Assembly (NCBI GenBank): GCA_963666835.2
Contig: CAXXGO010000003.1
Location: 352,001 to 416,000, forward strand
Origin: Phycisphaerae bacterium
GTDB lineage: Bacteria > Planctomycetota > Phycisphaerae > UBA1845
Length of the DNA stretch: 64,000 nt
Reading direction: 5' to 3'
Numbering within the stretch: position 1 is the stretch's first letter; each line of letters opens with the position of its first letter. The notes under the pieces were generated by a model, which did no database searches, had not been told where the DNA came from, and saw only the letters and a program-made list of their open reading frames with translations. A program made the position numbers and the translations under genes. This document shows, one piece after another, positions 31,648 through 56,094 of the stretch.

Positions 31648-32112
31648 GTTGTAAGTTGTTGTAAACAAAGCAGTTACTAAAACAAAGGCGGAGCCGGGGG
31701 TGGAGTGTGCGCGGTGTTTTCGGCCGCTACGCGATGGCGGTTCCCGCTCCTGGAATGCGCATAGCAGCCACGCCCACACTGATCAGGAGACCGCCGAAGG
31801 TCACCGTCACTTCAGATCAAACAGGCCCTTATGGCCCGCTTGGCCAGACCAGCCGATTTCGTAGAGTCGAGCGTGGGCCGTGCCGATGTCGAGTCGGGCG
31901 TGGACCGTTTCAAAGCCTGATACGCGTGCTCGGTAATCAAACTCGCGTCAGACACTGTCCGACAATCTACAAGTGAACTGGTTCTCTCTTCACCTGTTGT
32001 ATGTCCACACCCGGAAGTGACGGGGCTACGGCTCGCGGAATCTCGCGACCCCGGACGGCGTTCGTTCGGTCATGAACGGACGGGTCTAGTCAGCAACCTC
32101 GGAGTCAAACGC

Positions 32113-34882
32113 ATGTTGAAGAACCTCACAATCGGCAAGAAGATCGGCCTCGGCTTCAGCGTAGTCATGCTTCTGCTGGCCTTGGTTGCGGTTCTTTCAT
32201 ATACCGGGGTCGGCGGAATCGTGATGAATGCCGGAGAAGTCATCACTGGTAATAAGCTCGACGGCAACTTGGCCCAGAAAGAGGTGGACCACCTCAACTG
32301 GGCCAACAACGTCATTGCTCTGTTGACCGACGAGAATGTCACCGAGCTGTCCGTTGAGACGGACGATCATCAGTGCGGCTTCGGCAAGTGGTTATACGGC
32401 GAGGGCCGCAAGGAGGCCGAGAAACAGATTCCATCGATTGCCCCGATCCTCAAGGAGATCGAGGGATACCACGCACACTTGCACGAATCTGCGATTGAAA
32501 TCGGGGACCACTTCAAACAGGCCGACGCGACGTTGCCCGGCATGCTGGCAGCCCGCGAGGCCGATCACCTCGCATGGGCCGCTGAGATCAACAGGCTGTT
32601 TCTGGAGAATCTCCCCCAACTCGAGGTGACGACCGATCCGAACGAATGCGCCTTGGGCAAGTGGCTGGCGAGTTCAGAAGTAGAACGGCTCGCCGCTGCC
32701 GACCCCGAGTTCGCCAGTCTGCTCGAAGCCTTGAAGAAACCGCACGCTCTGTTGCACCGCTCAGCCGCTGCAATCCAAGACACGTGGAAGCAACAACACA
32801 AGGGTCTCATCCACACATTGCGGGAACGGCTGGACGATCACCGCAGGTGGGCGGCCGGCGTCGGCGAGGCGTTGCTGAGCCACAAGGAAATCGACGTCCA
32901 AACCGATCCGACAAAATGCGCTTTCGGCGTTTGGCTCGCCGGCGAAGAGTGCCGCCAACTCTGCGTGAACTGGCCGGAATTCAACGAGATCATCAACAAA
33001 GTCAAGAGGCACCACGCGGACCTCCACGAGTCGGCCGTAGGTATCCGGGAGCACACTAAGTACGCAGAACTCGCCGCAGCCCAAGCAACCGAAAAGCAGA
33101 TTAGCGAAGAATGGAATCGGATCGGCCGGCGGGTTACCACGGCTCTGGAAGAAGGGATGGTCAGCGTTATCGACCCTGCCAAGGCGAGCGCTGAGCAGGC
33201 AAGAGACGTTGCCGCTATGGTCTCGTGGGGCGCCATCGACATGCACATGAACGAGGCGATCATCGCCCCGTTTCTGCAGGCCCGCTTGCTGGCGGCTACG
33301 GCCACCACGCCCGAGCAGTGGCGGGCCTATGACGAGCAGTTCCGACAGGTTAGCGACGGCCTCGCCGAGTGGGCGACGATGATAGACGGCAAGGATAGCG
33401 TAGCGTTACAGCGAACGGCCCAGGCGGTCAGGCAGGCACTCCAAACATGGCAGGAGGCTACTTCCTCGTATCGAAGAGCGCAGGAGGAAGAGCACCAGTA
33501 CGCCGCTGCCTGTGAGCGGGCTCGGGAAATCTACAGAACCCAAACCCTGCCGGCGCTCCACGACGTCGCCACCCCTGTTCGCAAGCGCCGTCGAGATGGA
33601 GAACGAAGTTGTGGCGCAAGGAGAACGCGCCAAGGACATCTTCCATAACCAGACCATGGTGGCCCTGAGCGATACCCGCGCGGCCATCCACAAATGCCAC
33701 GACCATGCTACGTATGCTCTCGAAGGCATGAGGCACGCTGACGAAATCTACGCGAAGAGCACCAAGCCTAATCTGGAGCAAATCCAGATGTTGCTCAACA
33801 AGGTGCGGGCCGAGGTGAGGGGCAACGTAATGACCGATGATGCCATGCTCGCCAGCGCCCAGAACACCAAGCGAAACGTCACGCTCGTAGGGGCGATTGC
33901 CATTGTCGTCGGGGCAGTCTTGGCGTTTATGATCTCCCGCGGGATAAGCACCTCCCTGAAAACCATCATCACGTCTCTGCGCGACGGAGCCGATCAGGTC
34001 AACGATGCCGCCGGCCAAGTATCGTCCGCCAGTCAGGAACTCGCCGGCGGGGCGAGCGAGCAAGCCTCGTCGTTGGAGGAAACCTCCAGTGCTCTCGAGG
34101 AGATGGCGGCCATGACCCGGACGAACGCCGAGAACTCCAGACAGGCCAACGAGTTGAGCAGTCAGGCGTGCGACGCCGCCCAAAACGGCGACCGCACCAT
34201 GCACAAGCTCAATGAGGCCATGATCGGGATCAACGAATCGTCCGACCAGATCAGCAAGATCATCAAAGTAATCGAGGAGATCGCCTTTCAGACTAACCTT
34301 CTGGCGCTGAACGCGGCCGTCGAAGCCGCCCGCGCGGGCGAGCACGGTAAAGGCTTCGCTGTCGTAGCCGACGAAGTTCGCAACCTGGCCCAACGCGCCG
34401 CCCAGGCAGCCCGAGAGACAACCGGACTGATCGAGGATTCGGTCAACAAGGCCAAAGAGGGCACAAACGTTGCCGATGACGTGGGCAAGGCCCTCGGCGG
34501 CATCGTGAATGACATCACAAAGGTCACCGAACTAATCAACGGTATCGCCACAGCCAGCGAAGAGCAGGCCCAGGGCGTCGATCAAGTCAACACGGCCGTG
34601 TCTCAGATGGACCAAGTGACCCAGCGGAATGCGGCAACCGCCGAAGAATCCGCTTCGGCGGCCGAAGAACTCAGCGCCCAGGCGGAATCAGTCAAGGGAA
34701 TTGTGCGGGAGTTGGCGGTCATGGTTGGCGAAGATAGTCACCAAAGCAGTGGCCGCTCGCCACGTCCCCGCCCGCATGCGTTCCCCCGCAGGTCCGGAGC
34801 CTCGCCCAACAGCCCGGTGATTCCTTTGGGAGAGGAACCGCAAGGCACCGAGGTGGAGGATTCGACATTTGCCGGTCTGTAA
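32113..34882 (+). CDS. Methyl-accepting chemotaxis protein with three CZB domains (one frameshift at ~33573)
   Basis: TM1, three HxxW..CxxGxW..HxxLH motifs, TM2, then [34 protein letters not shown]; removing one C from CCCC 33572-33575 joins the two ORFs. Confidence 0.88.
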
Positions 34883-35176
34883 GCGAGTGTAAGACTACGA
34901 AGAAGAAGGTCGAGCCGGTCGTCGTCGCTTATGTTGATGCCGCGGGACCATGCGAAGGCGCGGCGGTAGGCGGCGGCCCACGAAACCTACCGCAGCATCG
35001 GCCGATGTAGGGCATGGTCGAGGTACGAGACCTGCCATGGTCTTCGGACGTCACAGACGTCTGTGGCCGTATGGGTCCCTCACCTCCAAGGGTGTCCTTG
35101 CGGTGAGCGTGTATGACGCGATTTGAGCGACCCGGTATCGTCAGCCGTCGACCGATGGTGGTCTGGAGGACGGCTG

Positions 35177-35617
35177 ATGAGATCCAGAGGGACAGGCACG
35201 CTCCCGGCTCGCCTCGAGGCGGGTCGGCGGCGTTTTGAACGTTGGCGTCGGACCCGTGAAGGCCGCTCGCGCATTCCGGATCCGCTGTGGAACTCGGCGG
35301 TAAAGCTCTCCGCAACGTACGGGATTCACCGAACCGCCAAGACGCTGCGACTCAATCCCGACTCGCTCAAGAAGCGCGTGGCATCTGCAAACGGCGATGG
35401 CTCGCTTGGGCAGAGGAAACCCCGACAGAAGACCGCCGGGCAGGAGGCAGCCACGGCTTTCGTTGAGTTGGTGTCTACTGAAGGCACTTGCCCGCCCGAG
35501 TGCATCGTCGAACTGGAGCATCCTCGCGGGGCGAAGATGCGGATCCACGCCAAGGGCAACCAAATCCCGGACGTGGTGACGGCGGTGAGCCAGATCTTCT
35601 TCGGCGCCATGCCATGA
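35177..35617 (+). CDS. tnpA: IS66 accessory protein TnpA-like
   Basis: HTH-like N-terminus, FVEL..VELEHPRG.KMRI C-terminus; GGAGG RBS; ATGA coupling to tnpB. Confidence 0.75.
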   Translation: MRSRGTGTLPARLEAGRRRFERWRRTREGRSRIPDPLWNSAVKLSATYGIHRTAKTLRLNPDSLKKRVASANGDGSLGQRKPRQKTAGQEAATAFVELVSTEGTCPPECIVELEHPRGAKMRIHAKGNQIPDVVTAVSQIFFGAMP

Positions 35618-35976
35618 TTCAGGTCACACCCCAGATGCGCATCCTGGTGGCCGTCGAGCCCGCCGATTTTCGAAAAGGCATAGATGGCCTGGCCCGGCTG
35701 TGCAAGGAGGAGTTGAAACGCGACCCGTTTTGCGGCTGGGTGTTCGTATTCCGCAATCGACGGGCCACGGCTGTGAAGGTTTTGGCTTATGATGGGCAAG
35801 GATTCTGGTTAAGCCATAAACGTTTGTCGAGCGGGCGGTTTCGCTGGTGGCCCGTCAGTAAGACAGGGGCGAGCAAGACGCTGGAGGCGCACCAGCTGCA
35901 CGTCCTCCTGTCGGCGGGCAATCCCGACGCGGCGCAGGCCCCGGCGGCATGGCGGCGAGTCAACGCAGCATCTTGA
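35614..35976 (+). CDS. tnpB: IS66 accessory protein TnpB
   Basis: EPADFRKGIDGL, DPF.G.VFVFRNR, KVL.YDGQGFWL..KRL..GRF.W. Confidence 0.93.
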   Translation: MIQVTPQMRILVAVEPADFRKGIDGLARLCKEELKRDPFCGWVFVFRNRRATAVKVLAYDGQGFWLSHKRLSSGRFRWWPVSKTGASKTLEAHQLHVLLSAGNPDAAQAPAAWRRVNAAS

Positions 35977-36005
35977 GAGCGAATGAAAAAACTCGGCCTT
36001 CGGGC

Positions 36006-36034
36006 TTGCGTTCTACTTTTGACCCTGCTACGCT
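36006..36034 (+). promoter_or_regulatory. Putative internal sigma-70 promoter (leaderless DUF4338 mRNA)
   Basis: TTGCGT-17nt-TACGCT with extended TG; ATG 6 nt downstream, no SD. Confidence 0.5.
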
Positions 36035-36040
36035 GCGGTC

Positions 36041-36913
36041 ATGGACGTGCTGCGGTACCGAGGCCGGGTTGTCACCGACGCCGACGTCGCCTTCATTGGT
36101 GACCTCATCAGCGCGCATCCAACCGCCACGCGGCGGGCACTGTCCCTGAAGCTGTGCGAGGCCTGGAACTGGGTCCAGCCCAACGGCGTTCTGCGGGACA
36201 TGGTCTGTCGCGGATTGTTGCTGGCGTTGCATCGCGCGGGCCACATCGAGCTGCCGCCGGCGCGGAAGTCCAATCCTCTGGGGCCGCAGCGTCGGACACC
36301 TTCGCGCGCGACGCTCCGCTGTGATCCCATCGAGGGGCGACTGTCCGACATCCTTCCGCTTACCATCGCTCAGGTGCGACGCACCGGTGATGAATCGCTG
36401 TTCGACAGTCTGCTTCAGACCCACCACTATCTGGGCTACACCCAGCCGGTCGGCGAACATTTGAAGTATCTGATCTCGACAAATGGTGTTCCGGTGGCCT
36501 GCCTGGCGTGGTCCTCGGCGCCGCGGCACCTGGGTCCAAGAGACCGCTTCATCGGTTGGTCGGCCGACAGCCGGCGGAAGAACATCCGCTTCATCGCTTA
36601 CAACCTCCGCTTTCTGATCCTGCCGTGGGTCGAGGTCCCTCATCTGGCCTCGCACATTTTGGGTCGCATGGCCCGGGTGTTACCTCAGGACTGGGAGCGG
36701 ATCTACGGCCACCCCATCTACTTCCTGGAGACCTTCGTTGATCCCCAGAGATTCAAAGGCACCTGTTACCGCGCGGCCAACTGGTTGGTTCTGGGGCGCA
36801 CCACGGGCCGGGGCAAGGACGACCTGACCCACCGGCCTAACCGGTCCATCAAAGAGGTGCTGGGCTACCCACTCTCGAAGCATTTTCGAAAACGATTGTG
36901 CCACACCGCATGA
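36041..36913 (+). CDS. DUF4338 (DruA-like) domain protein
   Basis: HHYLGY, GEHLKYL, RDRFIGW, N.RFLILPWV..PHLASHIL, DW..YG, ETFVD..RF.GTCYRAANW..LG.T.GRG. Confidence 0.85.
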   Translation: MDVLRYRGRVVTDADVAFIGDLISAHPTATRRALSLKLCEAWNWVQPNGVLRDMVCRGLLLALHRAGHIELPPARKSNPLGPQRRTPSRATLRCDPIEGRLSDILPLTIAQVRRTGDESLFDSLLQTHHYLGYTQPVGEHLKYLISTNGVPVACLAWSSAPRHLGPRDRFIGWSADSRRKNIRFIAYNLRFLILPWVEVPHLASHILGRMARVLPQDWERIYGHPIYFLETFVDPQRFKGTCYRAANWLVLGRTTGRGKDDLTHRPNRSIKEVLGYPLSKHFRKRLCHTA

Positions 36914-38628
36914 AGAAGACCATACCCATTGAGAAGATCGCTATGAAAGAACTGGAATCCATTCTGCAACGCGCTGAGACGGCTCCGCTGGATGCAAAGG
37001 ACCGCGCGAAGCTCAAGGCGGTGTTCGAATCCTACCTTCACCTGACGGACCTAGTCGAGGACAAGCAGATGACAATCAAGCGTCTACGGCAGATGCTCTT
37101 CGGCGCCGGCACCGAGAAGACCCGCGATGTGATCAAGGAGGAGGAAGACGAACCCGAGTCGCCGCCGGCGACGGGCGGGGATTCGCGTGCCCCGCCGGAG
37201 AAGACGGGCGAAGAGGGCTCGGAACCGCAGCAGAAACGCAAAGGACATGGGCGCAACGGCGCCGACGCCTACACCGGCGCTGAGAAGATCAGGGTGCCTC
37301 ACGAATCCCTCCAGCCGGGGGATTCGTGCCCGGCGTGCAAGAAGGGCACAGTCTACCAGATGAAGAAACCCGGTGTGCTGATCCGGATTGTGGGTCAGGC
37401 TCCGGTGGCGGCCACGGTCTTCGAGCTTCAGAAGCTGCGCTGCCATCTGTGTGGCAAGGTATTCACGGCCGAGCCGCCCGAGGGAGCGGACGAGGAGAAG
37501 TACGACGCGACGGCAGCGAGTATGATCGCCCTGCTGAAGTACGGAAGTGGGTTACCCTTCAATCGATTGGAAGGCCTGCAGGGAAACCTGGGCATTCCTC
37601 TGCCGGCCTCGACCCAGTGGGACATCGTCCGCGACACCGCCGAGATCATCCAGCCGGCCTATGATGAGCTGATCCGGCAGGCTGCCCAGGGGGAGGTGCT
37701 GTACAATGACGATACCACGATGAAGATTCTGGAACTGATGGGGAAGCGGGCTACCGCCAGAGCCTGTGCCGAAGCTGAAGGCGAGGACGAGGGCGATGGC
37801 GCACCCGAACGTGCGAAGAACGTACCCAAGCGCTCGGGGGTGTTCACCTCGGGCATCGTGTCCACCCGCGAAGGGCGCACGATCGCGCTGTTCTTCACGG
37901 GGCGGCGGCACGCTGGGGAAAACTTGGACGAGGTCCTGGCCCACAGAGCCTCGGAGCTGGGTGTGCCGATCCAAATGTGCGACGCCCTGTCGCGTAATGC
38001 GCCCAAGGAATTCGAGACCATCCTGAGCAACTGCCTGTCCCACGGCCGGCGCCAGTTCGTCGATGTGGTGGAGAACTTCCCGGACGAGTGTCGCCACGTG
38101 CTTTTGACCCTGAGGGACGTCTACAAGCATGATGCCATCGCGCAGAAGCAGGACCTGACGTCCGAAGAGCGCCTCCGCTTCCACCAAGCTGAGAGTGGCC
38201 CGCTGATGGACGACCTCAAGGAATGGCTAACCAGGCAACTCAAGGACCACCTGGTGGAGCCGAACTCCGGTCTCGGCGAGGCTATTACCTATATGCTCAA
38301 GCACTGGGACAAGCTGACGCTCTTCTTGCGTAAGGCTGGGGCTCCGCTGGACAATAATGTTTGCGAACGAATTCTGAAGCGGGCGATTCTTCACCGTAAG
38401 AATGCGATGTTCTTCATGAGCGAAAACGGTGCCCGCGTGGGCGATCTATTCATGAGTCTGATCCACTCCTGCCAGCTTTGCGGCGCCAATCCCTTCGATT
38501 ACTTGACCGAGCTACAGAAGCACGCGGCGGAACTCACCTCCGATCCCGCGACGTGGATGCCCTGGAATTACCGGGACGAATGGAAGAGGCGAAACGTGGA
38601 CACGGAAACGGCAGTGGGATATGTCTAA
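36910..38628 (+). CDS. tnpC: IS66 DDE transposase TnpC
   Basis: Leucine zipper, CPAC..CHLC zinc finger, DDT, MCDA, C.SHGRRQF, LDNNVCER.LK, NPFDYL. Confidence 0.93.
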   Translation: MKKTIPIEKIAMKELESILQRAETAPLDAKDRAKLKAVFESYLHLTDLVEDKQMTIKRLRQMLFGAGTEKTRDVIKEEEDEPESPPATGGDSRAPPEKTGEEGSEPQQKRKGHGRNGADAYTGAEKIRVPHESLQPGDSCPACKKGTVYQMKKPGVLIRIVGQAPVAATVFELQKLRCHLCGKVFTAEPPEGADEEKYDATAASMIALLKYGSGLPFNRLEGLQGNLGIPLPASTQWDIVRDTAEIIQPAYDELIRQAAQGEVLYNDDTTMKILELMGKRATARACAEAEGEDEGDGAPERAKNVPKRSGVFTSGIVSTREGRTIALFFTGRRHAGENLDEVLAHRASELGVPIQMCDALSRNAPKEFETILSNCLSHGRRQFVDVVENFPDECRHVLLTLRDVYKHDAIAQKQDLTSEERLRFHQAESGPLMDDLKEWLTRQLKDHLVEPNSGLGEAITYMLKHWDKLTLFLRKAGAPLDNNVCERILKRAILHRKNAMFFMSENGARVGDLFMSLIHSCQLCGANPFDYLTELQKHAAELTSDPATWMPWNYRDEWKRRNVDTETAVGYV

Positions 38629-39211: not shown

Positions 39212-39368
39212 CCCGCCGCCAATTCCCCAGGTGGATGTCGAGTCCTGAAAGCCGACCGGACCTCACATCGTGATGCCCGCCAAGCAACGGCCCGCGTCTT
39301 CCCCCCACCACGAACCGCGCGCCACAAAACCGGATCATACACGCTCACCGGAAAGACACCTCCAAGGA

Positions 39369-40043
39369 GATGGGCCACCCGCTCAGTACCGCGACCGTTA
39401 GGGAGCCGGCCCGACGCTACGATCGCATCGGGCGGGTCGCTTACGCTCGCCGTACTGAGTGCGCAGGCTTCCTCGCAGGGCAGCATCGGCGGATGTAGGG
39501 CATGGTCGAGGTACGAGACCTGCCGTCGGTCTTCGCGCGATGGCGGTGACGCTCCGCCGGCCCATCCGGACGGGAATACGCGGGGCCAAACCGCCCCCAC
39601 GGGTTCCGCTTCGCTCCACCCGTGGCTACTTGCCTAGGTCCCTTCGGGACGAACTATCGCACGACCGCGCCAGCGTCCTTCGCGTAGCGCTGGCATCCTG
39701 CCGGCAGCATGCCGGACAACGTACGAACTCACACAATTCCGCCACCGCCAACGCGATGGGCCACCCGCTCAGTACCGCGACCGTCAGGGAGCCGGCCCTA
39801 TACACCACTCGCCAAGGGCGGGTCGCTCACGCTCACCGTACTGATTGCGCAGACCTCCTCGCAGGGCAGCATCAGCGGGTGTAGGGCATGGTCGAGGTAC
39901 GAGACCTGCCGTTGGTCTTCGCGCGATTCCGGCAACTTTCCGCCGGCCCTTCGGGACGGGCGTACGTGAGGGGGATTCGCCCCCACGGGTTCCGCTCCGC
40001 TCCACCCGTGGCTACTTGCCTGCGCCCCCTTCGGGGCGAACTA
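39369..40043. repeat. Tandem ~386-bp-period composite REP repeat (2 copies)
   Basis: GATGGGCCACCCGCTCAGTACCGCGACCGT at 39369 and 39755; both units carry GTAGGGCATGGTCGAGGTACGAGACCTGCC (third copy ~35007) and CCCCACGGGTTCCGCT.CGCTCCACCCGTGGCTAC. Confidence 0.85.
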
Positions 40044-40084: not shown

Positions 40085-40648
40085 CTACTGCTCGGTAGTT
40101 AAAGCCCGCTTGGGATCGATAGCCACGCCGCACTCCGAGCAGACGCCCGTAACGTTGCCGGTCAGGTCGTAACCGCAGGCAATACACAAACCACGTTTGC
40201 GCCGACGGCGACGGCGAAGTGGGCCGCGGATGAACGTGACGGCCGGGTAGGCCGCCAGAAGACATGCGACGCCCCACGGGAACCTGGCGGACATGTAGAT
40301 GGACAGGTGCCATCCACACGCCCGACTCGGATAGACCTGCACGTTTAGCCCAACAAGTCGTTCGAGGCGTGAGGCCAGCCTGAAACCTTTTGCAGAATCC
40401 ACGATACCGTGAGAGCAACATTGACAACCGGAATACAAACAGTCCTCATTAGCCTCCAAGGCTGCCACCCCGCCGCGCAACACATCAATGGAGCAATACC
40501 AGGGCGAAGGCTGCAAACCACTGTAATACGGCCCCAACCACGGCGATGCACAAACCAGAAACGCGCCGAGGCACGCCATCGACACCGCCCCCAGCGTCAA
40601 CCCGACGATAACGGCCACGCGGAACATCCTGAGGATCTTGCGAATCAC
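40085..40648 (-). CDS. Variable membrane protein with C-terminal Zn ribbon (array member 5)
   Basis: GTG start VIRKIL in GTGA overlap; FIRGPLRRRRRRKRGLCIACGYDLTGNVTGVCSECG. Confidence 0.75.
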   Translation of the reverse strand: MIRKILRMFRVAVIVGLTLGAVSMACLGAFLVCASPWLGPYYSGLQPSPWYCSIDVLRGGVAALEANEDCLYSGCQCCSHGIVDSAKGFRLASRLERLVGLNVQVYPSRACGWHLSIYMSARFPWGVACLLAAYPAVTFIRGPLRRRRRRKRGLCIACGYDLTGNVTGVCSECGVAIDPKRALTTEQ

Positions 40649-41295
40649 GAGGAAACCGCCCTTCCACACTCCGAGCAAACACCCGTGACGTTGCCGGTCA
40701 GGTCGTAACCACAGCCAGTGCATCTTCCGTTGCGCACGCGCCAGTAACGATGGGCTGGTCCGCGAAGGAACACAGTGACCGGATAGAGCGAGAAGACCGT
40801 AAACGCCATCCATATAGGCATCTTCACCGACCATACGGACGTCTGCTTGTTTGCCGCGAAATCCCTGTCTTCTTTGGTGAGCCCGAATCGCCAGCCGGCT
40901 GCGGGAGGCTTCTGGGCATAACACAGAAACTGAAAACCAAGGCCCTCAAGGTCGTGCGGACGGAATGTGGACTCGCGATCAACCTCTACGAACAACCCGA
41001 GGGCAGCATTACCATTGTAGGATTGAAGACACATTCGCCTGCCTGGACCGAGGTCCATGCAACGTCGGTAGCCCGGTGAAACATGACCCGCCAGAGCGTT
41101 CCGCCATCCGGTGGTCAGCCCAACGCGTTGGTGCCACCGAAAAAGCACAAGGAGCTCCCTTCGCATTGAATACGTGGTTCCCCAGCGCTGCGAGTCGTAG
41201 TTGATCGACGTGGCCGTGCTCGAACCCAGACGCCACAGCCAAAGGCACCCCACAGCCCCGAGCACACACCCGAACAGGATGGTCTTGCGGATCAC
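40645..41295 (-). CDS. Variable membrane protein with C-terminal Zn ribbon (member 4)
   Basis: VIRKTIL start; FLRGP..RNGRCTGCGYDLTGNVTGVCSECG. Confidence 0.78.
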   Translation of the reverse strand: MIRKTILFGCVLGAVGCLWLWRLGSSTATSINYDSQRWGTTYSMRRELLVLFRWHQRVGLTTGWRNALAGHVSPGYRRCMDLGPGRRMCLQSYNGNAALGLFVEVDRESTFRPHDLEGLGFQFLCYAQKPPAAGWRFGLTKEDRDFAANKQTSVWSVKMPIWMAFTVFSLYPVTVFLRGPAHRYWRVRNGRCTGCGYDLTGNVTGVCSECGRAVSS

Positions 41296-41933
41296 GAGTC
41301 AATCGCCCTCCCGCATTCGGAGCAGACGCCGGATTCGTTGCCGGTGAGGTTGTAGCCGCAGTTGTGGCAGTACGGACACGAGCGATCCGAACACTTCCCG
41401 AGCTTGCCGTAGACTGTGCGGGCCACAACGAATGATGCCGCCAGCGGAAGTACCAGCAATCCAGCAAGCGCGACGTCTTCTGACCCTAAGGATCGACCGA
41501 GCGCCTTGATCCCGTCGCCCCCCTCCAATAATCCGTACTCAACCATGTTGAGAACGTAATTGGCCACGACCATGGACAGCAGGAACGATGCCCCAGCAAT
41601 GACGAGTCTATGACGGCGATATCGCCGAACAGTCCCTCTAATCGCTACGATGGCCGGGTATATGCTCAGGAGAAGAAACGCCGCCCAGAACGGAATGACA
41701 AAATTGCCCCAGAAACTGACACCGCCATACCGCCCAAGATCGACGGCAAACCCACGGTACCCACAGTAACCAAGCACGCACGGAACAGGGGTTGACGCCC
41801 GATCCAGCAGCCCGAAGCCGCACCAATGCGGCAACGTACCCCCGGACACCGTTAGGTTGGCCGGTCTGACCCATAGGGCAGCCGTCCCGATCGCCGCCAA
41901 TGTCAGCACCACAATGATCGCCTTGCGAATCAC
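41292..41933 (-). CDS. Variable membrane protein with C-terminal Zn ribbon, extra TM pair (member 3)
   Basis: VIRKAII start at 41933; four hydrophobic segments; CHNCGYNLTGNESGVCSECG. Confidence 0.75.
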   Translation of the reverse strand: MIRKAIIVVLTLAAIGTAALWVRPANLTVSGGTLPHWCGFGLLDRASTPVPCVLGYCGYRGFAVDLGRYGGVSFWGNFVIPFWAAFLLLSIYPAIVAIRGTVRRYRRHRLVIAGASFLLSMVVANYVLNMVEYGLLEGGDGIKALGRSLGSEDVALAGLLVLPLAASFVVARTVYGKLGKCSDRSCPYCHNCGYNLTGNESGVCSECGRAIDS

Positions 41934-42503
41934 GGCGTGATCTCCGTACCACACTCCGGGCAGACGCCTGATACGTTCCCTTGTAGGTTGTACCCGCACG
42001 TCAGGCACAGGCCTCGCTCTTTCCGGCGCCAGCGTCGCCACCTACGCATGGGGCCGCGAATGAAGGTGAGCGTCGGGTATGCCACCAAGACGGCCAATGG
42101 AAACCAGTTTGCCACGCGGGCCCTCCAGACCGCATGTTGTCCCGGGGCGGCAGTCGAATAGAACCTCGCCTGGTCCCACTTGAAAACTCCGAGGTCAATC
42201 ACACCGATCGTCACACCGTCCGGATCCTCCGCCCAGTCGTCGCAAAGCACCGAGGTCCAGGCCGAGCTGATCTCAATGCGCAGCATGCGGTCCCACGCAC
42301 CGATCGGTTCGTTCCCGTTGCTGACCCGCCCCTCAGTAGCGACATATACCGCAATCGAGGTGCCGGTCCCGTCTCGACGGACACCCACGCTTCGTCCCTG
42401 AGACAACCAGCCGTATTCCGTTGCCGGAAACGCCAGAACCACCCAGGCGACGGCGTAGACAATCGCCCCGAACGCGCGCGTACAGGATAGTCTTGCGGAT
42501 CAC
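41930..42503 (-). CDS. Variable membrane protein with C-terminal Zn ribbon (member 2; frameshift ~42478)
   Basis: VIRKTILY start at 42503 shifts frame into AFGAIVYAVAWVVLAF; ends FIRGPMRRWRRWRRKERGLCLTCGYNLQGNVSGVCPECG. Confidence 0.7.
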
Positions 42504-43087
42504 GAAGAAACCGCCCTCCCGCATTCGGAGCAAGTGCCGGATTCGTTCCCGGTGAGGTCGTAGCCGCAGGCAACGCATAGGCCGCGCTTCAACCGTCGTC
42601 GTTGTCGGCGTTGACGCATAGACCCGCGGACAACCAGGAGCAGCGGTGCCGCGGAAATGATGAATGGTGCCCACAGCGGGATGTCCAGTTGCCGGTGCCG
42701 CATGATCACATGGTACATTGTGTGGTCGGACAAGTCAGCTTCAACCGTATACAGAGGGATGTCATGCCGATAGAAGCCCAGACATCCGGAGTTGCCCGGT
42801 GACCCGATGGGCATCTCCCAGCCGCGCCGCCTCTTGTCGATCTCCGAGTCGTAGCTCTCTTGATCGTTGTCCCGGACGGTCTCACAGAAGCGCAATACGC
42901 CTCGCAAGCAGTATACCGCCCTCCACGTTCCGCGATCACTGGATACTCCGTATCTCGGGAACGTCGTATAGCTAAGGACCGCCGCAACGACCACGAGAAC
43001 CAGGCTGACTGAGGCGCAGACGACGAGCAGGCGAAGCACCCTCGGCACCCACCTGACTCTTGCGTCGACCACACCCCTCTCGTGCAT
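42500..43087 (-). CDS. Variable membrane protein with C-terminal Zn ribbon (member 1)
   Basis: Two TMs; RRRLKRGLCVACGYDLTGNESGTCSECG; start uncertain (ORF open to 43252). Confidence 0.72.
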   Translation of the reverse strand: MHERGVVDARVRWVPRVLRLLVVCASVSLVLVVVAAVLSYTTFPRYGVSSDRGTWRAVYCLRGVLRFCETVRDNDQESYDSEIDKRRRGWEMPIGSPGNSGCLGFYRHDIPLYTVEADLSDHTMYHVIMRHRQLDIPLWAPFIISAAPLLLVVRGSMRQRRQRRRLKRGLCVACGYDLTGNESGTCSECGRAVSS

Positions 43088-47285: not shown

Positions 47286-47569
47286 ACCTATTCACTTGTC
47301 AAAACTACGTCGAGCGTCTCCCGACCACAGCACCATAACCACGCCCTTTTCGGCGGTCAAGTGACAGGTTTTGCGGGATTAGCAGCCTCCGGCGTGCGGT
47401 TTTGCCCCCGAATCGCAGAGCCTGCGCCGCCGCCTCGACACGCCCGCGGCGATGTGCGATACTACAGGGCTGTGTACATTTGAAGAAGAAACGACGCCGC
47501 AGACGACGCCGCGGAGGCCCGCGGCCTGCAGAGTGCAGACGGTCTTATTGGGACGCTTTTTCTGCCGTG

Positions 47570-49778
47570 ATGGAACCTGACTCGCTAGTTGAATTGGTTA
47601 AAAGCGGTAACATCGGAACGGTCGAACAGGAGTGGATGGGCATTATCGAGTCCCCCGAGGTCTCCCCGAAGAAGCTCGCCGCCTATGCCAAGGTGCTCTC
47701 CGAGATGTGCCAGGCCAACAAGTGCCCGCAAGCCGGGGAGTTGGCTTGGTCCGCGATTGAATCCCTTTCATCCCGATACTCGCCGTCCGAGACGCTTACC
47801 GCGGCCGGACCGTTCCTCCTCGGCATCGGAGACAACGCAGAGGTTCGCGCATCGGTAACCGAGCTCTATCGGAAGGCTTACGCAGATTGCCAGGGGCTTG
47901 ACGAGTTGCTTACCGAGGCAGGCATCGCCGGCGGGCGTCCGGTTCGCAGGGCTCTACGCACGTTGGACGTTTGCCTCAGACTGGAGGAGGGCGATTACCT
48001 GGCCGCCCGCCACGAGGACGCCGTTGCTCGTATCGACAGTATCGAGCGGCCCGTCCTGGGAGTTCTCAATCACCCTGGACGGAGAACAGAACACCCTCGG
48101 GCCGGTGCACCTCGCAGACACGTATCGTCCCGGTCCCGGCCACGGATTTCCACGTTCTGATGCACTTCGCCCCGGAGGAGGTGGCGAAGCTGCTGCGCAA
48201 TGATCCGGTTACCATCGTTACGGACATCTGCCGACGGCACGGTGGTCGGATCGACAGCGACGAGTTAGCGGACGAACTGGTGCCGCGTCTGATGGACGAG
48301 GCGGAATGGAAGAAGTGGTGGACCCGCGCTCGAACCGCGCTGAAAGAAGTCCCCGCACGTTACGTTGACTGGACGGTCTCCGTACGAGATCACGTACTCA
48401 GCGAAACCGGTACCGGCCGAGGAGTTGTTCATTCGAGATTTCCGCACTCTGCGCGACCCCAACAAGCAATGGTCGCTCATTGAGAAGTACGTTCGCGAGT
48501 GCAAGCTGCGAGACAGCGACCCGGACCCGGCAGTCATGCGCGAGTGTTACGAGGACTTCCGCGGAAGAGCCCAGCGCATGACGGCGTCCGGCGCCATCGC
48601 TGCCGGCCTGCATTGGATGATCGCGTCCTATGTGGGCGAGCTGGCCGGAGTCGCTGACGCAGAAGCCGGAGCGCTCGAGCTTTTTCGCGAAGCACAAGAC
48701 CCCCGCAGCCCTGCTCCGCTCCATCGATTCTGATGTTCTGGTAACTCGCGCATGGCAGTATCTGATCGAGGCCAAGCCGGAGTCTTGGCGAGATGAGCTT
48801 ATCGAGATCCTCCCGGCCCTGCCTCTGGCGGCGTGTGACGGGGTGGCCCAGCGGCTCATCGAGTCAGGTCGCTCGGTTGCAGATTTCGAGCCGGTGATCG
48901 AGCGGATTCTCGCCTCGCCGTTGCCACACTTCGACGCCCTTCTGTGGCTCTGGAACGGTCCGTCAAACAAAGAGCTTCTGGCCAACGTGACGCCGATTTC
49001 GATCCTCACGCGGATCTTGCGCACTCTGGAGTTTGCCAGGCTGTCGGATGACGTCCCCAACGACGCGCTCAAACGTATGAAAGCAGTCGCTCGAGCGGTA
49101 GTCCCCGCCCGCAAACGCGAACGTTTCCGAGAGTGCCTCGACGGTCTGGAGCCCGGCGTTGCCCGAACCCTCAAACTGCAGATCTCGCGCGGCGAGGGGT
49201 TTGGTTATAGTGTCCGAGACGACCTCGTTCGTGAAATCGAACGGCGATTGCCGACAGAAGCCGCGGAAACCGGAAATCGAACCCTGGAAGCGCGAGGATA
49301 TTCTATTCGCCACGCGGGCCGGAATCTCCCGCAAGCAAGAGGAAATCGATCATCACGTAAACGTCAAAATGGCCGAGAACGCTCGTGCCATCGGCGCGGC
49401 AGCCGAGCGCGGCGATCTCAGTGAGAACTCGGAGTACAAGTTCGCCCTGGAAGAGCGCGACCTTCTGCGGGCTCGCCTTGCCCAGATGAACTCCGAGATT
49501 GGCCATCGCCCAGGTAATCGACCCCGACGATGTCTCTACCGAGCACATCGACATTGGGACTCGAGCGGTTTTCCGGCGCATGGCGGACGGCGCCGAATAC
49601 GCGATGACCTTCGTAGGACCGTGGGAGGCGGACAGCGAAAAAGCGATGTTCAACTATCGAGCCCCCTCTGGCGCAGCGGTTGATGGGTATGCGGATTGGT
49701 GACGAGGTCGAGTTCGACCACGCAGACGTAAGTGGGAAGTACGAGATCGTAGCGTTGCACAACTCCCTGGCTGACTAG
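47570..49778 (+). CDS. greA: GreA/GreB-family factor with long N-terminal extension (several frameshifts)
   Basis: ENARAIGAAAERGDLSENSEYKFALEE, TFVGPWEAD, WKKWWTRAR; pieces lie in successive frames. Confidence 0.8.
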
Positions 49779-51264: not shown

Positions 51265-52405
51265 ATGGCTTGGAAGGCCAGGCCGCGATACAAGCCCGCC
51301 TCGCAACGAGTGGGTACTTCGCTACCAAAACAAGAGTCACTATCTCTGCTCCGGATCTGACAACGAGGCGCTCGCCTGGGCAAAGGCCCAACAGATCCTG
51401 GGCGATACTGGACAGCCTGACGGCCCCCATCGAAACGGTAGGGGCAGCGTGTGAAGACTGGCTCAAAGCATACCACCCCTCGTCCAACTGGCACGCTCAG
51501 ATGCTCGCCCCGTTTATGAACTGGACGGAGGGGCTCATGCCTTGACAATGTCACGCCTACACTCCTGAAGAGATACCTGACGCACCTTCAGAGCATCACC
51601 TACAAGCGAGGGAGACACGAGAAACACTACAGCCCCGCGACGATCCGACGGCAGATGAGGTTCGCCCCGCGCCGTTTTGGAGGAGGCCCGCCAGAACGGA
51701 CACATGTCGCGTCCAACGCCCCCCATGCCCCGCCTGCCCAAGATCCCGCTGGTGGCCCGTGACATCTCGCCGGAAGACCTGAAGAGGATCTTCGAGTACC
51801 TCCCCGTTCGTGCTCGGCGAGTCCTGTACTTCGCGTCGGCCACGGGGATGCGCCCCAGCGAAGCTCGGCTTCTTCGTTGGGACGAGATCCATGAGGATAA
51901 GTGTATCCTTAACCGCGGTAAGACCTACAAAGCAACCGGACAGCCGCGAATAGCCCACCTGAACTCTGATGCAAGGGCGGTGCTGGACTCCGTGCCCGGC
52001 GAGAGGCAGGGGCACGTCTTCTTGAACAGCCTCGGCAAGCCGTACGGGGTAAGCGGACTCCGTTCCATCTTCAAACGGGCAGCCGCCAGTGCCGGGGTCG
52101 AGGTGACCGGCCCGTACCAACTCAGGCATTCGTGGGCGCAGACCCTCTACGACTCCGGGCAACTCTCGCTGGATATGATCGGCGCCGAACTCGGTCATAC
52201 GCCTGGCTCCCCTGTCACGAAAGTGTACGCCCGGATTGGGGAGCAACGCGTTGCGAAGGCCGTGCAAGGCCTAAACGCACCAGTCGCTCCCGGTCTGCTT
52301 GACGCAAAGCGTCGGAAGACCTCTTCTTCGGGGAAGCGATACCGAGGAAGCGGTTCAAAGAAGACTCGAAAAACCGCCAAGGGCCGGAACCGTCAAGCTG
52401 GATAG
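51265..52405 (+). CDS. int: Tyrosine recombinase/integrase (N-terminal half frameshifted)
   Basis: TGMRPSEA, GKT, YQLRHSWA, LGH, TKVY; GGAGG RBS before ATG 51265. Confidence 0.88.
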
Positions 52406-52505
52406 CGTGGAGTGATCCGCGGCGGCGGTACGCATGCACCGTCCTAACGGACACCTGTAGGCGATCAGCAACTTGCTGGGGCGTCAGGAGGGTGTCATTA
52501 CTCAA
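52215..52505 (-). CDS. Excisionase-like HTH protein
   Basis: LLTPQQVADRLQVSVRTV..RRRGSLHA..GPWRF; TTG start overlapping the ATPase stop. Confidence 0.8.
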   Translation of the reverse strand: MSNDTLLTPQQVADRLQVSVRTVHAYRRRGSLHAIQLDGSGPWRFFESSLNRFLGIASPKKRSSDALRQADRERLVRLGLARPSQRVAPQSGRTLS

Positions 52506-54456
52506 GGAGGCACCCTCCCAACCGGTCAGCAACCGGGAAGAGTGACTGGTCCCAATTCGGGCCTCCGTCGGAGTCAGAACTACATGTAGGGCCCTCATAC
52601 CCAGAGAGAAGGGCCGATTTACCGTCAGTTGCGTCAGTTGCGCCAGAAACCCAATTATTAGGCCCGTGAGGCCCGATTCCGCTTGGCGCAACTCGGATCT
52701 CAACGTCGTCAGTTGCGCCAACATCGCGGCGGTTTGCGCCAGGATCGGCGTTGGCCGGAGGCTCCGGACCCCACCGCAGGGATATCGTCCGGCTGGAATC
52801 AGCCCCTCGACCACGGGATATGGACAGCCCCACAGCGTGTAATGCCCCCTCCAACCGCCCAATACGAGCGCTCAGCGATCGCGCGTTCCGCGGCCAACCC
52901 TGCGGCACTTGGTCAGGGACAAGCAGATTGAACAGGGCCGTCGATGTGCCCTCCCAACTGCGCCTGGCCCTAACAAACTTCAAGACGCCTTGGGCTACCG
53001 GATCAGACTCAATAACGTCCGCGACAATGCTCTGACGTTGCCCACAATAGGTCTCAAACGCCGCTGCCCCCAATACTCCATCCATCGCGGAGAGGATCCG
53101 CCCGAACTCGGCGAGACGGGGCAGGTTATCCGGGCGCGTGTCCGGCAGAATGCGGAGGACTTCGACCGCCAGGTCCAGCACACCCCCTAGAACCAACGGG
53201 TGAACTCGCCGAAACGCAGTCGCCTGCTCTACCTCTGTCCGGCGATCCGCTTCCGAGATCTGCTCAAGCTCCAGCAACATCAGACGAGAGCCGAGGTCAC
53301 CACGCATTGCGCCGGGATCGATACTCGTGAGCAATACGCACCGGCGAAACCCCACTACCGCAAGAGAATCGTCAGTGTACAACTTCCTTCGGAGCAGAGC
53401 CTCTCCGGTAACCGCCCGGCACAGCGCGTCACTCCAATCTGCGCGGATCGTCGAGACATTGTCGACCGGCACGACCCACGAGCCCGCGGCCCCGATCACC
53501 CACGCTTCCGTATCCCGCGGTGGCGTGCGAGGTCCTACTGCAGACGGGTCGAGAATGTCCGCCAGGAACCGAGCCGCCGTAGTCTTGCCAGCGCCCTCCC
53601 CGCCGCCTAACAGCACAATGGGATGATCGATATCGCCGAACAGCAGCGACACCAGCCAGCCGCATAGCAATGGCCAAGCCTCATCGTCTACGTTCAGAAG
53701 TCCCCGAAGATGGTCGAGATCTCCTCCTTTCGCCGGATCAGGTAGCTCACCGGTCAGGGCGGTGCGATAGAACAGAACCGGCGATCGAGCAACGACCTCC
53801 CAACCGCGCGGGCTAATCACGATGGCCCGCCCGTCCGACGAGCCCAAATCGATCACCCTGTCGTCGCCGTGTTCAGCAACGCGAAGGTGCACGGGTTCCG
53901 GCGTGCCCTCCAGGGCCATCCCCTCCAACACGAGCAGCGCGTCGCCAACTGCGGAGCTATTGGGGACCTTGCCGAACTGGCGATTGTAGTTCCGAGCCAT
54001 CTCGGCCCGGAGCGACTGCCGACCACCCCGGAACATCCGCGCTACGTTCGGGCCATCCTTCAGGACCGCGAAGGGTGAGCCCTCCATAGTCTGGCCCAGC
54101 CGATATCGCTCGTGGACCATGCCAACCAGCTTGTCGGCAACCCCATCTCCGCATCGATTCTCGCCATCCTGCCCGGCTTTGTCCTGCCGGAGTTCGTCAG
54201 CCTTAATAGCGTCGTTCGCCTCCAACTCGGCACTCTCCAGCATGCGGCAGACGTCTTCAACCTCGATGGGCTCGTCGCCGGTCAGACGTTCGTCAGACGC
54301 CCACTTCGTGGCTACCTCCTTACGTTTCCGCGGTGAGCCGAGACGGTACCGCTCCATCGCGACATCCCGTCCGCCGCGTGTGGCGATGAACAGTGTCATC
54401 CGGTTGGGTTCTGATTCGGTCCGAATCTCAAATGGTAGTCGGGCGTTATCCGGCAT
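52498..54456 (-). CDS. Replication ATPase/helicase-like protein of the element
   Basis: Walker A GGEGAGKTT, Walker B VVPVDN, LLTSI, RKLYTD; GAGGAGG RBS. Confidence 0.72.
   Translation of the reverse strand: MPDNARLPFEIRTESEPNRMTLFIATRGGRDVAMERYRLGSPRKRKEVATKWASDERLTGDEPIEVEDVCRMLESAELEANDAIKADELRQDKAGQDGENRCGDGVADKLVGMVHERYRLGQTMEGSPFAVLKDGPNVARMFRGGRQSLRAEMARNYNRQFGKVPNSSAVGDALLVLEGMALEGTPEPVHLRVAEHGDDRVIDLGSSDGRAIVISPRGWEVVARSPVLFYRTALTGELPDPAKGGDLDHLRGLLNVDDEAWPLLCGWLVSLLFGDIDHPIVLLGGGEGAGKTTAARFLADILDPSAVGPRTPPRDTEAWVIGAAGSWVVPVDNVSTIRADWSDALCRAVTGEALLRRKLYTDDSLAVVGFRRCVLLTSIDPGAMRGDLGSRLMLLELEQISEADRRTEVEQATAFRRVHPLVLGGVLDLAVEVLRILPDTRPDNLPRLAEFGRILSAMDGVLGAAAFETYCGQRQSIVADVIESDPVAQGVLKFVRARRSWEGTSTALFNLLVPDQVPQGWPRNARSLSARIGRLEGALHAVGLSISRGRGADSSRTISLRWGPEPPANADPGANRRDVGATDDVEIRVAPSGIGPHGPNNWVSGATDATDGKSALLSGYEGPTCSSDSDGGPNWDQSLFPVADRLGGCLLE
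52623..52741. repeat. Iteron-like repeats (putative element origin)
   Basis: CGTCAGTTGCG at 52623, 52632 and 52707; inverted TGGCGCAACT at 52684; TTTGCGCCA at 52733. Confidence 0.55.
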
Positions 54457-54946
54457 ATGCGTGCCTCCTCGACCGACGATGACTGACCACGGCCGCCTTG
54501 CGCTTGGGCGAAGCACCTCCCGGGACGAACGGCTCGGCGACCAGGTCTTTGGCCCGCCGCACAAGTTCCCCAGCCCGTCGACGCCGGTCCGCGAGGGACT
54601 TGACCGCCCCGGCCCATCGATCGACGTCAGTATCGAGCACGTCCTCCTCTACCAGCTCCTGAAGCTCGCTCGGATTGAACTCGACGCTGAACGGGTCCCG
54701 GGCTCGCCGGTTCAGCTCGTGCAGGTCGTCGAGGGTCAGCCGGACGTCATTCTCGGCCGCAGTGCAGAGAATCGCGAACAGCCACGAGTGCTCCGGGAAA
54801 CCAAAGTCCGCGCCGCACAACCCGATCCGGTACGCCGCGTTGTTCAACAAGACCGGAAAGTGGAATCCGCTCGACAGTAGCCGCCGCTCGTAGTCGCGAG
54901 CCTGCTCGACGTGGATTGCGGGGTAGTCGTCAATATGTCTGTTCAT
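54446..54946 (-). CDS. Stand-alone DnaB N-terminal-domain-like protein
   Basis: ERRLL..L.GADF.FPEH..LFAIL..WAGAVKSLADRRR resembles the DnaB_N pattern; no ATPase domain. Confidence 0.55.
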   Translation of the reverse strand: MNRHIDDYPAIHVEQARDYERRLLSSGFHFPVLLNNAAYRIGLCGADFGFPEHSWLFAILCTAAENDVRLTLDDLHELNRRARDPFSVEFNPSELQELVEEDVLDTDVDRWAGAVKSLADRRRRAGELVRRAKDLVAEPFVPGGASPKRKAAVVSHRRSRRHAYAG

Positions 54947-55422
54947 GACTTGCCCTCCACAACATCGAGCAAGCCCTGCGCGGCCGCGTAATCCCCAGAG
55001 ACGACGCGTGCGGCTTGATAGAGGTATCGCTCGCAGAACCTGCCTGCGGACATGTGACTACCGGCGAATACGAACGGAATGCGATACTGAGCCATCCATG
55101 CCGAGATGGAGCCCAGCACGGCCGCCGGTGTGACCTTCGGCCGCCAGCCACCGGCCTCGATGGTGTTAAGGTCAGCCTCGACTATCACACACCGGAACCG
55201 GAAGCCTCGAAGCCGCCGGAGTTCACGCTCGAAACGACGCCTGCTTCGGCCAACGCACTGAACGAGGTCGTATAACGACTTGTGTTCGACGCTGATTAGA
55301 CTGGTCAGCCCAGCAACCGAGCAATCCCCCGTCTCCAGGGTGCCCCGTTTGCTGGGCAGGTTCTCGAAGGTGAACGGGTTCTGCTCGCGGGTGTCGATGA
55401 TGATGTGGGCGTCAACCTTCAT
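54943..55422 (-). CDS. ERCC4/XPF-family nuclease domain protein
   Basis: IIIDTREQ, L.TGDC, VEHKSLYDL, RFERELRRL, IVEA. Confidence 0.85.
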   Translation of the reverse strand: MKVDAHIIIDTREQNPFTFENLPSKRGTLETGDCSVAGLTSLISVEHKSLYDLVQCVGRSRRRFERELRRLRGFRFRCVIVEADLNTIEAGGWRPKVTPAAVLGSISAWMAQYRIPFVFAGSHMSAGRFCERYLYQAARVVSGDYAAAQGLLDVVEGKS

Positions 55423-55621
55423 TGTACACACCCCCATGTCCCCCACGCCTGGCGTCAATCTCCCTGAGCGCCAGCACGGTGTACTGCCGAGCGAGATTCA
55501 GCTCCCCGCTGAGCGCGGCCGCGGCGGCCCGCAGGAGAATGAAGCCGGCCCCGTTCACAACGGCAGACAGCGGGATCTCCCGAAGCCCAGCCGCGACGGG
55601 GTTCTTGGTTGGGCGCCTCAT
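55412..55621 (-). CDS. Small hypothetical protein
   Basis: ATGA-coupled to the upstream HTH gene; overlaps the ERCC4 start. Confidence 0.5.
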   Translation of the reverse strand: MRRPTKNPVAAGLREIPLSAVVNGAGFILLRAAAAALSGELNLARQYTVLALREIDARRGGHGGVYNEG

Positions 55622-55869
55622 ACGGCACCGCCTTCCGCCGAGGCTTGCGCCGCCTCGACAGCGTCCTCCCAGCCCTCCTTGACCGAGACACCCTTCCGGC
55701 GGAGTTCGAACACGATGAACCGGACGTAGCTCGCCGGAATCTGCCGACGACCCGAAACAACCGGACATAGGTCATCTCGGAGTTTCCGGTCGTAGAACAA
55801 GCGGGTGATTACCGCAGGCTTCACGCCGAGGATTCTCGCTACACCACTTACACCCAAGATCGCTGACAT
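55618..55869 (-). CDS. Small HTH DNA-binding protein (AlpA/MerR-like)
   Basis: LGVSGVARILGVKPAVITRLFY..CPVVSGRRQIP; first gene of the operon. Confidence 0.65.
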   Translation of the reverse strand: MSAILGVSGVARILGVKPAVITRLFYDRKLRDDLCPVVSGRRQIPASYVRFIVFELRRKGVSVKEGWEDAVEAAQASAEGGAV

Positions 55870-55958
55870 ACTGCCATCTCCGCACCAGCCCATCATGACG
55901 ACCGCCACTCGGCAGCCCTTGTATGCGCAGTATTGTCAGAGATGTGCGCTTCCGATGT

Positions 55959-55994
55959 GGGTCACGAATGGGGCAAAAAAGGGTCACGAATGGG
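55959..55994. promoter_or_regulatory. Direct-repeat operator candidate
   Basis: GGGTCACGAATGGG at 55959 and 55981 (22-bp period). Confidence 0.5.
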
Positions 55995-56094
55995 CTGGCC
56001 GGGACGAAGAGTCTGAAGTGCGCGCACAGCCAAGCCCCGCCAGTGAGATCGGCAGGGCTTCATTCGCAGTTATCGCGCTATCGTAGTGCTCAGA

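Follow-up and report, generated by a model that had tools for sequence, protein, structure and literature searches.

Between positions 43087 and 40085 of the window (the whole stretch of 64,000 nucleotides analysed, from the genome of a Phycisphaerae bacterium), the minus strand carries five head-to-tail genes, each of which ends in a CxxCGY(D/N)LxGNx(S/T)GxC(P/S)ECG ribbon. The question raised by this array is how genes with such dissimilar middles come to share one tail and one type of joint, and which function the assembly may serve. Comparison with sister arrays makes it very probable that the genes are reshuffled by homologous recombination through the shared ribbon block. As to function, the balance inclines, on the basis of gene position, towards an orphan polyimmunity array directed against envelope-acting Rhs toxins. 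In the following, G000 denotes the source genome of the array (6.0 Mb, 61% GC, 92% complete), G021 and G056 other genomes, and L-numbers the fetched loci. The comparison genomes were all from outside the genus, and the sequencing runs consulted were assembled contigs of at most two samples.

Five genes and four coding junctions

Gene 1 (42500..43087, 195 aa) is built of helix, loop, helix, poly-Arg segment and CxxC/CxxCG ribbon, and has no IRK head; its loop has a relative in an array gene of G021 (37% over 94 aa). Gene 2 (41930..42503, 574 nt), one of seven related genes in arrays of G000, is frameshifted about eight codons past its IRK start, and the downstream frame (41930-42442, from GTG) encodes loop, helix 2 and ribbon. 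The frameshift site is crossed gap-free by one assembled contig of run X2. As this run is possibly that of the source sample, and as further genes of the window have a split appearance, the frameshift may still be an assembly error. Gene 3 (41292..41933, 213 aa) has four hydrophobic segments and the same ribbon tail, gene 4 (40645..41295, 216 aa) an IRKTILFGC-type head and a loop with no relative among 132 compared loops. Gene 5 (40085..40648, 187 aa) has a longer tail and paralogues at C5:38.1k (54%) and C6:567.4k (52%) of G000. Genes 1, 2 and 5 can be aligned with relatives from other arrays. An earlier note on this DNA had described a first gene without IRK and a last gene with a different tail, as was found here; of the common plan of membrane segment, domain and membrane segment that it proposed, the ribbon tail holds for all five genes, and the two-helix order fails for gene 3.

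The four junction blocks (minus strand) lie at 42472..42601, 41902..42031, 41264..41393 and 40617..40746. Block 1 contains ribbon codons, GGGAGGG, a GTGA stop/start overlap and an IRK head; block 2 contains GGAG and a GTGA overlap; block 3 is identical to block 1 at 77/87 nt, and block 4 contains GGAAGGG and a GTGA overlap. The GTGA overlaps reported for all four junctions were seen again, each followed by T(C/T)CGCAAG, as were the purine-rich Shine-Dalgarno (SD) words of three junctions (GGGAGGG, GGGAGGG and GGAAGGG), the fourth being the one with GGAG. A recount of the match between the junctions at ~42500 and ~41292 gave exactly the 77/87 nt stated before; 12/14 four-fold degenerate sites are identical in it, and only 16/60 and 25/60 positions in its flanks.

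The last codons of each gene hold the ribosome-binding site (RBS) of the next, and every gene pair is joined by a recurrent block of ~60-130 nt that consists of the ribbon, the RBS, the overlapping start and the head. RTGA overlaps were counted at 67/71, 38/39 and 22/29 internal junctions in three sets, and SD-like words after CPECG occur in 25/43 internal genes vs 1/26 terminal ones. The view that the junction is conserved as DNA was not borne out. Four-fold identity of the core is 0.41 in G000 and each synonymous position varies, high junction identity being confined to recently exchanged pairs.

A group II intron also appears to home to the ribbon repeat. Its three copies in G000, at C6:1065006 (plus strand), C6:567375 (minus strand; L006 4069-4289) and C7:26526 (minus strand), all sit right after C-P-(E/K)-C-G codons, and the copy in L006 matches Rfam RF02005. 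A similar start follows a ribbon in L121, where Rfam gave no match. A block of 457 nt common to a family gene and an Rhs locus turned out to be this type of intron and not the product of recombination between them.

Evidence for exchange through the ribbon block

The clearest mosaic is given by gene 1 of L003 and gene 1 of L004, which are identical at 116/120 nt up to 30 nt before the ribbon Tyr codon. The match breaks inside YNLTGN, and the right-hand sides match different arrays (79/96 and 113/132 nt), with flanks at background level; one of the two right-hand blocks is window junction 1. Mosaic blocks of 87-180 nt with 82-94% identity lie between unrelated flanks, and their breakpoints occur anywhere from the poly-Arg codons through CPECG and on into the head. 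In addition, the nearest neighbour of a ribbon core was found in the same genome in 90/142 cases (14 expected).

The extent of the exchanged unit was deduced from correlations among 143 units of 42 loci. Helix 2 varies with the head of its own gene (rho 0.56, p 0.002, 64 genes), and shows no relation to its own tail (-0.04) or to the next head (0.01). The residues after CPECG track the head of the next gene (0.54) and not that of their own (0.05), which places the switch of linkage in the 3' half of the ribbon, near the CPECG codons. The link between helix 2 and its own head was replicated in 42 other records, comprising few units from one genome (0.19, p 0.002). Against the shuffling reading, the link between tail and next head was not replicated there (0.06, p 0.12, 39 junctions), and it vanishes within IRK-type heads (0.07). 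The earlier proposal, according to which recombination at the junctions swaps extracytoplasmic domains, is retained as regards recombination through the junction, a non-fixed order and a diversifying library, and has to be modified as regards the unit. What moves is mostly the whole gene body, head, loop and second helix together, with the zinc-ribbon DNA as the joint. Loop-only swaps exist (L003 gene 3; L004 gene 2 vs L061) and are not the main signal.

The loop of L004 gene 2 is 79% identical to a loop of G056, and four-fold identity over the gene reaches 0.62, compared with a range of 0.38-0.41 in two housekeeping genes from that genus; identity is lower at both ends of the gene body. Because the body exceeds the housekeeping identity while both ends fall below the body, the comparison suggests a transfer between genera followed by replacement of the ends. 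Such events are probably occasional, since ribbon cores average 71% identity in G000 and only 18/435 pairs have at least 20 exact bases in common. Candidate joints in the contigs of the assembled runs look like other repeat copies or other organisms, and were not used.

The cassette-like layout and the statistical switch of linkage near the CPECG codons would also suit an integron-like system that has a dedicated site-specific recombinase for the ribbon DNA. This is extremely improbable. The integron integrase model TIGR02249 gave no match over the cut-off in G000 (92% complete), the tyrosine recombinase of the window scored 22 bits vs 265, and none of 184 open reading frames (ORFs) flanking the arrays encodes a recombinase. 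Moreover, no hairpin was detected (z -0.1 to 1.2), synonymous sites vary without an invariant core, and the breakpoints are scattered from the poly-Arg codons to CPECG and the head. It is from the missing integrase and hairpin and the free synonymous variation that homologous recombination is deduced, presumably acting within the block to add, delete and swap gene bodies within and between arrays. An array would also acquire gene bodies of other genera, and recombination would normally preserve the tail of each gene and its coupled start. Preservation of frame and coupling, as claimed before, is thus the rule, with gene 2 and at least three broken members of sister arrays as exceptions.

Protein architecture and a probable link to Rhs loci

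Most members are predicted to have a fast-evolving beta-sheet in the periplasm, framed by two membrane helices, and after these an Arg-rich CxxC/CPxCG ribbon in the cytoplasm; this topology was read from hydropathy, from the position of the Arg-rich end and from models made with AlphaFold. The model of a relative, P0138 (alignment of 111 sequences; predicted local distance difference test score, pLDDT, 93.5), shows helix, antiparallel beta-sheet, helix and ribbon, and that of window gene 5 the same order (pLDDT 69). According to the positive-inside rule, the Arg-rich segment would make the ribbon cytoplasmic and the sheet periplasmic. Fold searches with the two models gave no clear match; the best agreement of a loop with known periplasmic folds (RseB/MucB, type III secretion chaperone-like; Z 6.6, root-mean-square deviation 3.2, 70 residues) is within the noise of the tool. 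The ribbon has two Cys knuckles, CxxCG and CPxCG, and its matches to CPxCG or rubredoxin-like knuckles are weak (E 0.006-0.18, all below curated cut-offs). From this motif it may be expected to bind a metal, zinc or iron.

The middles of the five window genes were said to be without visible similarity, and indeed 10/10 pairs of loops gave z<=0.6. That they are unrelated domains is not upheld. The 132 compared loops fall into 105 clusters, and a profile made of loops only recognises 5-18/48 held-out loops vs 0-1 controls, which indicates remote homologues on one fast-diverging scaffold; a search with the loop of one paralogue returned that loop alone. The ratio of nonsynonymous to synonymous substitutions (dN/dS) is 0.39-0.92 for loops of paralogues (13/17 pairs measurable, four saturated), 0.15-0.25 for loops common to several genomes and mostly 0.1-0.3 for tails.

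The functional reading relies on the position of related genes. G000 encodes a type VI secretion system (T6SS) sheath and 22 Rhs core matches; among the 101 genomes of the same Phycisphaerae family, Rhs cores occur in 92 and the sheath in 35. Ribbon-bearing membrane genes lie <=1 kb after Rhs tips in 5/23 cases in G000 and in 6/59 in relatives (11/82 together), compared with 14/1500 random stretches; the 11 matches come from four genomes, clustered in few loci, and the random baseline is from G000 only. The subfamily of the window genes was delimited with a ribbon-free hidden Markov model (Rhs-adjacent members 42-110 bits, window genes 34-65). A scan of 195 loci, some fetched twice, found a same-strand Rhs core upstream of a subfamily gene in four of them (L084, L222, L194 and L057). 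The subfamily gene is the third after the tip in L057 and the first in the other three (3/250 subfamily ORFs, 0.43 expected, P 0.01), which, according to the available part of PMC10539506, is the position of a cognate immunity gene. More Rhs-like fragments lie downstream of the subfamily gene in L084, L222 and L057, and an orphan in the array at C1:1494k shares 42-50% identity with two Rhs-adjacent genes. The family thus appears to be linked to Rhs loci more often than by chance, its Rhs-adjacent members being candidate partners of the neighbouring tips.

Several Rhs loci deserve separate description. An island at C6:1058-1081 kb of G000 has seven tips, most of them short, Ala/Gly-rich and hydrophobic, which makes these possible membrane-acting toxins. 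Four tips there are directly followed by ribbon-tailed membrane genes, the tips so followed being short and either hydrophobic or Cys-containing. In two other islands of G000 the tips are nuclease-like by eye and precede apparently soluble proteins. HExxH occurs in 3/4 tips beside subfamily genes (L194, L057, L084) vs 1/61 others, a post hoc comparison of tips that are barely related; two of these HExxH tips are very Cys-rich, and that of L194 has a weak Peptidase_M91 match (E 0.057). Strong family matches were tallied by hand in 15/34 T6SS-bearing genomes vs 12/66 others, kin not being independent. Three candidate relationships were discarded: the only match of the L057 tip was spurious, the apparent homology between L002 gene 3 and an Rhs-adjacent gene falls in an overlapping frame, and a match by eye between genes of L029 and L177 was unconfirmed.

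A number of results weigh against the immunity reading. Approached from the toxin side, 0/82 sampled Rhs tips were followed by the subfamily of the window. The reciprocal test was mixed (1/2): in favour of the reading, the gene behind a homologue of the L084 tip encodes a protein of sister architecture, helix-ribbon-helix with a large outer domain; against it, that of the L194 tip precedes an unrelated gene, and a third copy lies at a contig end. For the bodies of 15 Rhs-adjacent ribbon genes, no homology to the 294 members from arrays or solo loci was detected, and a juxtamembrane motif apparently shared between Rhs-adjacent and array genes was gone after trimming 14 residues. No toxin gene adjoins the window array or is found among the 184 flanking ORFs of the other arrays, and loop dN/dS never exceeds 1. 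The ribbon is also promiscuous, with 58 motif matches in G000, many in unrelated proteins, and therefore variable islands could gather such genes otherwise.

A receptor-like architecture with a strongly conserved cytoplasmic end, under low tail dN/dS (mostly 0.1-0.3), would be expected of a diversifying sensor library whose loops bind outside ligands and whose ribbon relays to a common partner, Rhs islands merely collecting accessory genes. We regard this as unlikely, for the 184 flanking ORFs include no fixed signalling neighbour (three sigma-70, one GGDEF, one SpoIIE) and it does not account for the same-strand enrichment directly after Rhs tips. A near-neutral accordion, in which a promiscuous ribbon-tailed gene undergoes tandem duplication and unequal crossing-over while its loops drift under relaxed selection, would explain the frequent broken members, the paralogue loop dN/dS below 1 and the lack of a DNA-level site; it is distinctly improbable in view of the purifying selection on loops common to several genomes (0.15-0.25), the presence in 101/101 genomes and the maintenance of RBS and overlaps.

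Small two-helix inner-membrane proteins with hypervariable periplasmic parts suit the superinfection-exclusion class, and the arrays might thus encode anti-phage proteins whose loops block DNA entry of different phages. Two arrays with a common upstream element of serine recombinase, AAA ATPase and ArdC-like genes would agree with this. Only one viral contig matched the family, however, and no defence-island neighbours were prominent among the flanking ORFs, the PADLOC library being outside the search, so that this possibility is given little credence.

Immunity remains the leading function within the receptor or immunity library proposed in the earlier note, owing to the Rhs adjacency, and is somewhat favoured for the window array. 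Each gene would yield an inner-membrane protein with a variable periplasmic beta-sheet and a common cytoplasmic metal-binding ribbon, the variable part presumably binding and neutralising an envelope-acting Rhs-type toxin of competitors. It is tempting to speculate further, tentatively and with the chances rather against it, that the whole represents a recombinase-free toxin-immunity cassette system, in which the ribbon is at once effector module, RBS of the next gene and crossover site, genes of rival Rhs loci are spliced in frame, and a group II intron has adapted to the repeat. If true, ribbon-tailed antidotes would number thousands of different membrane proteins, one of the larger unannotated bacterial protein families would obtain a function, long polyimmunity arrays would extend to Planctomycetota, and a coding domain would serve as the recombination joint of a gene library. 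A common cytoplasmic ribbon on unrelated immunity proteins would also hint at a common downstream step, such as removal of the complex or a stress signal.

Distribution, surroundings and relation to known systems

G000 has a total of 30 units, two of them solo genes and the others in six arrays of 3-6 units. The family profile matches 101/101 genomes of the same Phycisphaerae family at E<=0.001, a threshold at which matches can come weakly from the ribbon alone, and 4/301 genomes of a phylum-wide sample at 1e-10, G000 included. The family forms 9,377 clusters at 50% identity (E<=1e-10), clusters at 90% being almost all singletons; named relatives are mostly labelled Phycisphaerae or Planctomycetota, few otherwise. 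Among the fetched loci, picked by strong profile matches, 61/100 distinct gene clusters have two to eight units. In L001 (5120-6230, minus strand count) two family units are fused into a 369-aa protein, the junction stop being absent, and fusions of two to four units also occur among the top profile-search matches. Pfam and NCBIfam contain no model near the cut-off for the family, no described Imm family matched, and the ESM Atlas gave unnamed Planctomycetota clusters only. Literature searches, including terms in PMC11266412, left the family undescribed, supplements and most subscription papers being outside their coverage.

The genes around family loci are varied housekeeping genes; in the 184 ORFs scanned, out of 191, no recombinase, toxin, secretion or signalling partner recurs. 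Just beyond the 3' end of the window array, at 39357..40028, lie two 286-nt copies (85%) of a genome-wide repeat resembling repetitive extragenic palindromic (REP) sequences, which as far as tested belong to the flank and not to the mechanism. Their apparent excess within 1 kb of 5/8 loci (vs 11% of random positions) was rejected as circular, the probes having been taken from array flanks. Sigma-70-like promoters were searched and none was found; terminators were at chance level. Elsewhere in the window, an IS66 element (TnpB, transposase) with a DruA-like gene in between occupies 35123-38628, and a divergent tyrosine recombinase, which is not an integron integrase, lies at 51677-57354 with an ERCC4-domain gene and two unknown ORFs. 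Two further parts of the window each look split over frames, as pseudogenes or assembly indels, namely a chemoreceptor (CZB plus MCP signal, 32017-34882) and a GreA-containing region (47402-49683). The serine recombinase, AAA ATPase and ArdC-like element lies at L004 10094-13139 and L005 767-3831, divergent from and upstream of the two arrays; the copies, the sole two in G000, are 91% identical over 3.5 kb, yet the arrays consist of different genes. Furthermore, a solo family gene at C6:566486-568412 of G000 is flanked by two 443-nt elements (97%) with terminal inverted repeats, and the array at C1:260.6-264.5 kb by 593-nt direct repeats (95%).

Among known systems, homogeneous polyimmunity loci are described by Zhang et al. 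2012 (PMC3482391, available part) as tandem, often distant paralogues of one immunity type located away from the toxin, and are proposed as a reserve against toxins of non-kin; in the same part, extended loci are reported only from proteobacteria, bacteroidetes, firmicutes and actinobacteria. The window array agrees with them in being a tandem paralogous array without an adjoining toxin, and differs in that no Imm family matched and unrelated bodies carry one coding tail. For the esaG/tipC arrays, the accessible text of Garrett et al. 2022 (PMC9484751) reports homology blocks in and between paralogues that drive gain, loss and chimeras by homologous recombination, and homology blocks with mosaic paralogues were also found here. 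Those arrays concern a single type VII-linked locus and a single soluble family, whereas the present family consists of membrane proteins in six arrays dispersed in G000 at non-conserved sites, with a block that is wholly coding and includes an overlapping start.

In Rhs C-terminal toxin-immunity units, the immunity gene directly follows the rhs gene and orphan RhsI protect against rival tips (PMC10539506, as far as its available part goes). Such units exchange through the rhs core, the immunity-like genes described here through their own tails. Tsi5, according to the part available of PMC9637101, is a two-helix membrane immunity protein that neutralises an Rhs pore-former; the likeness drawn here is one of architecture. 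The spacing CxxCG...CPxCG is the same in CPxCG-type zinc fingers and rubredoxin-like knuckles (HVO_2753, PDB 6ydh; PMC2253796, in part), whereas in the present family the ribbon is fused to membrane proteins. Integron arrays likewise contain same-strand unrelated genes separated by a repeated unit, and a group II intron appears to target the ribbon repeat as IIC-attC introns target attC (PMC3001079, available part); unlike integrons, the arrays lack IntI, hairpin and invariant site, and their repeat encodes protein. By analogy, the window array would work like a polyimmunity locus and evolve as the esaG/tipC arrays do; it does not pass the tests for an integron. What is new is the family itself, with its size and its spread over numerous loci, and the fact that unrelated bodies share a joint which is coding throughout.

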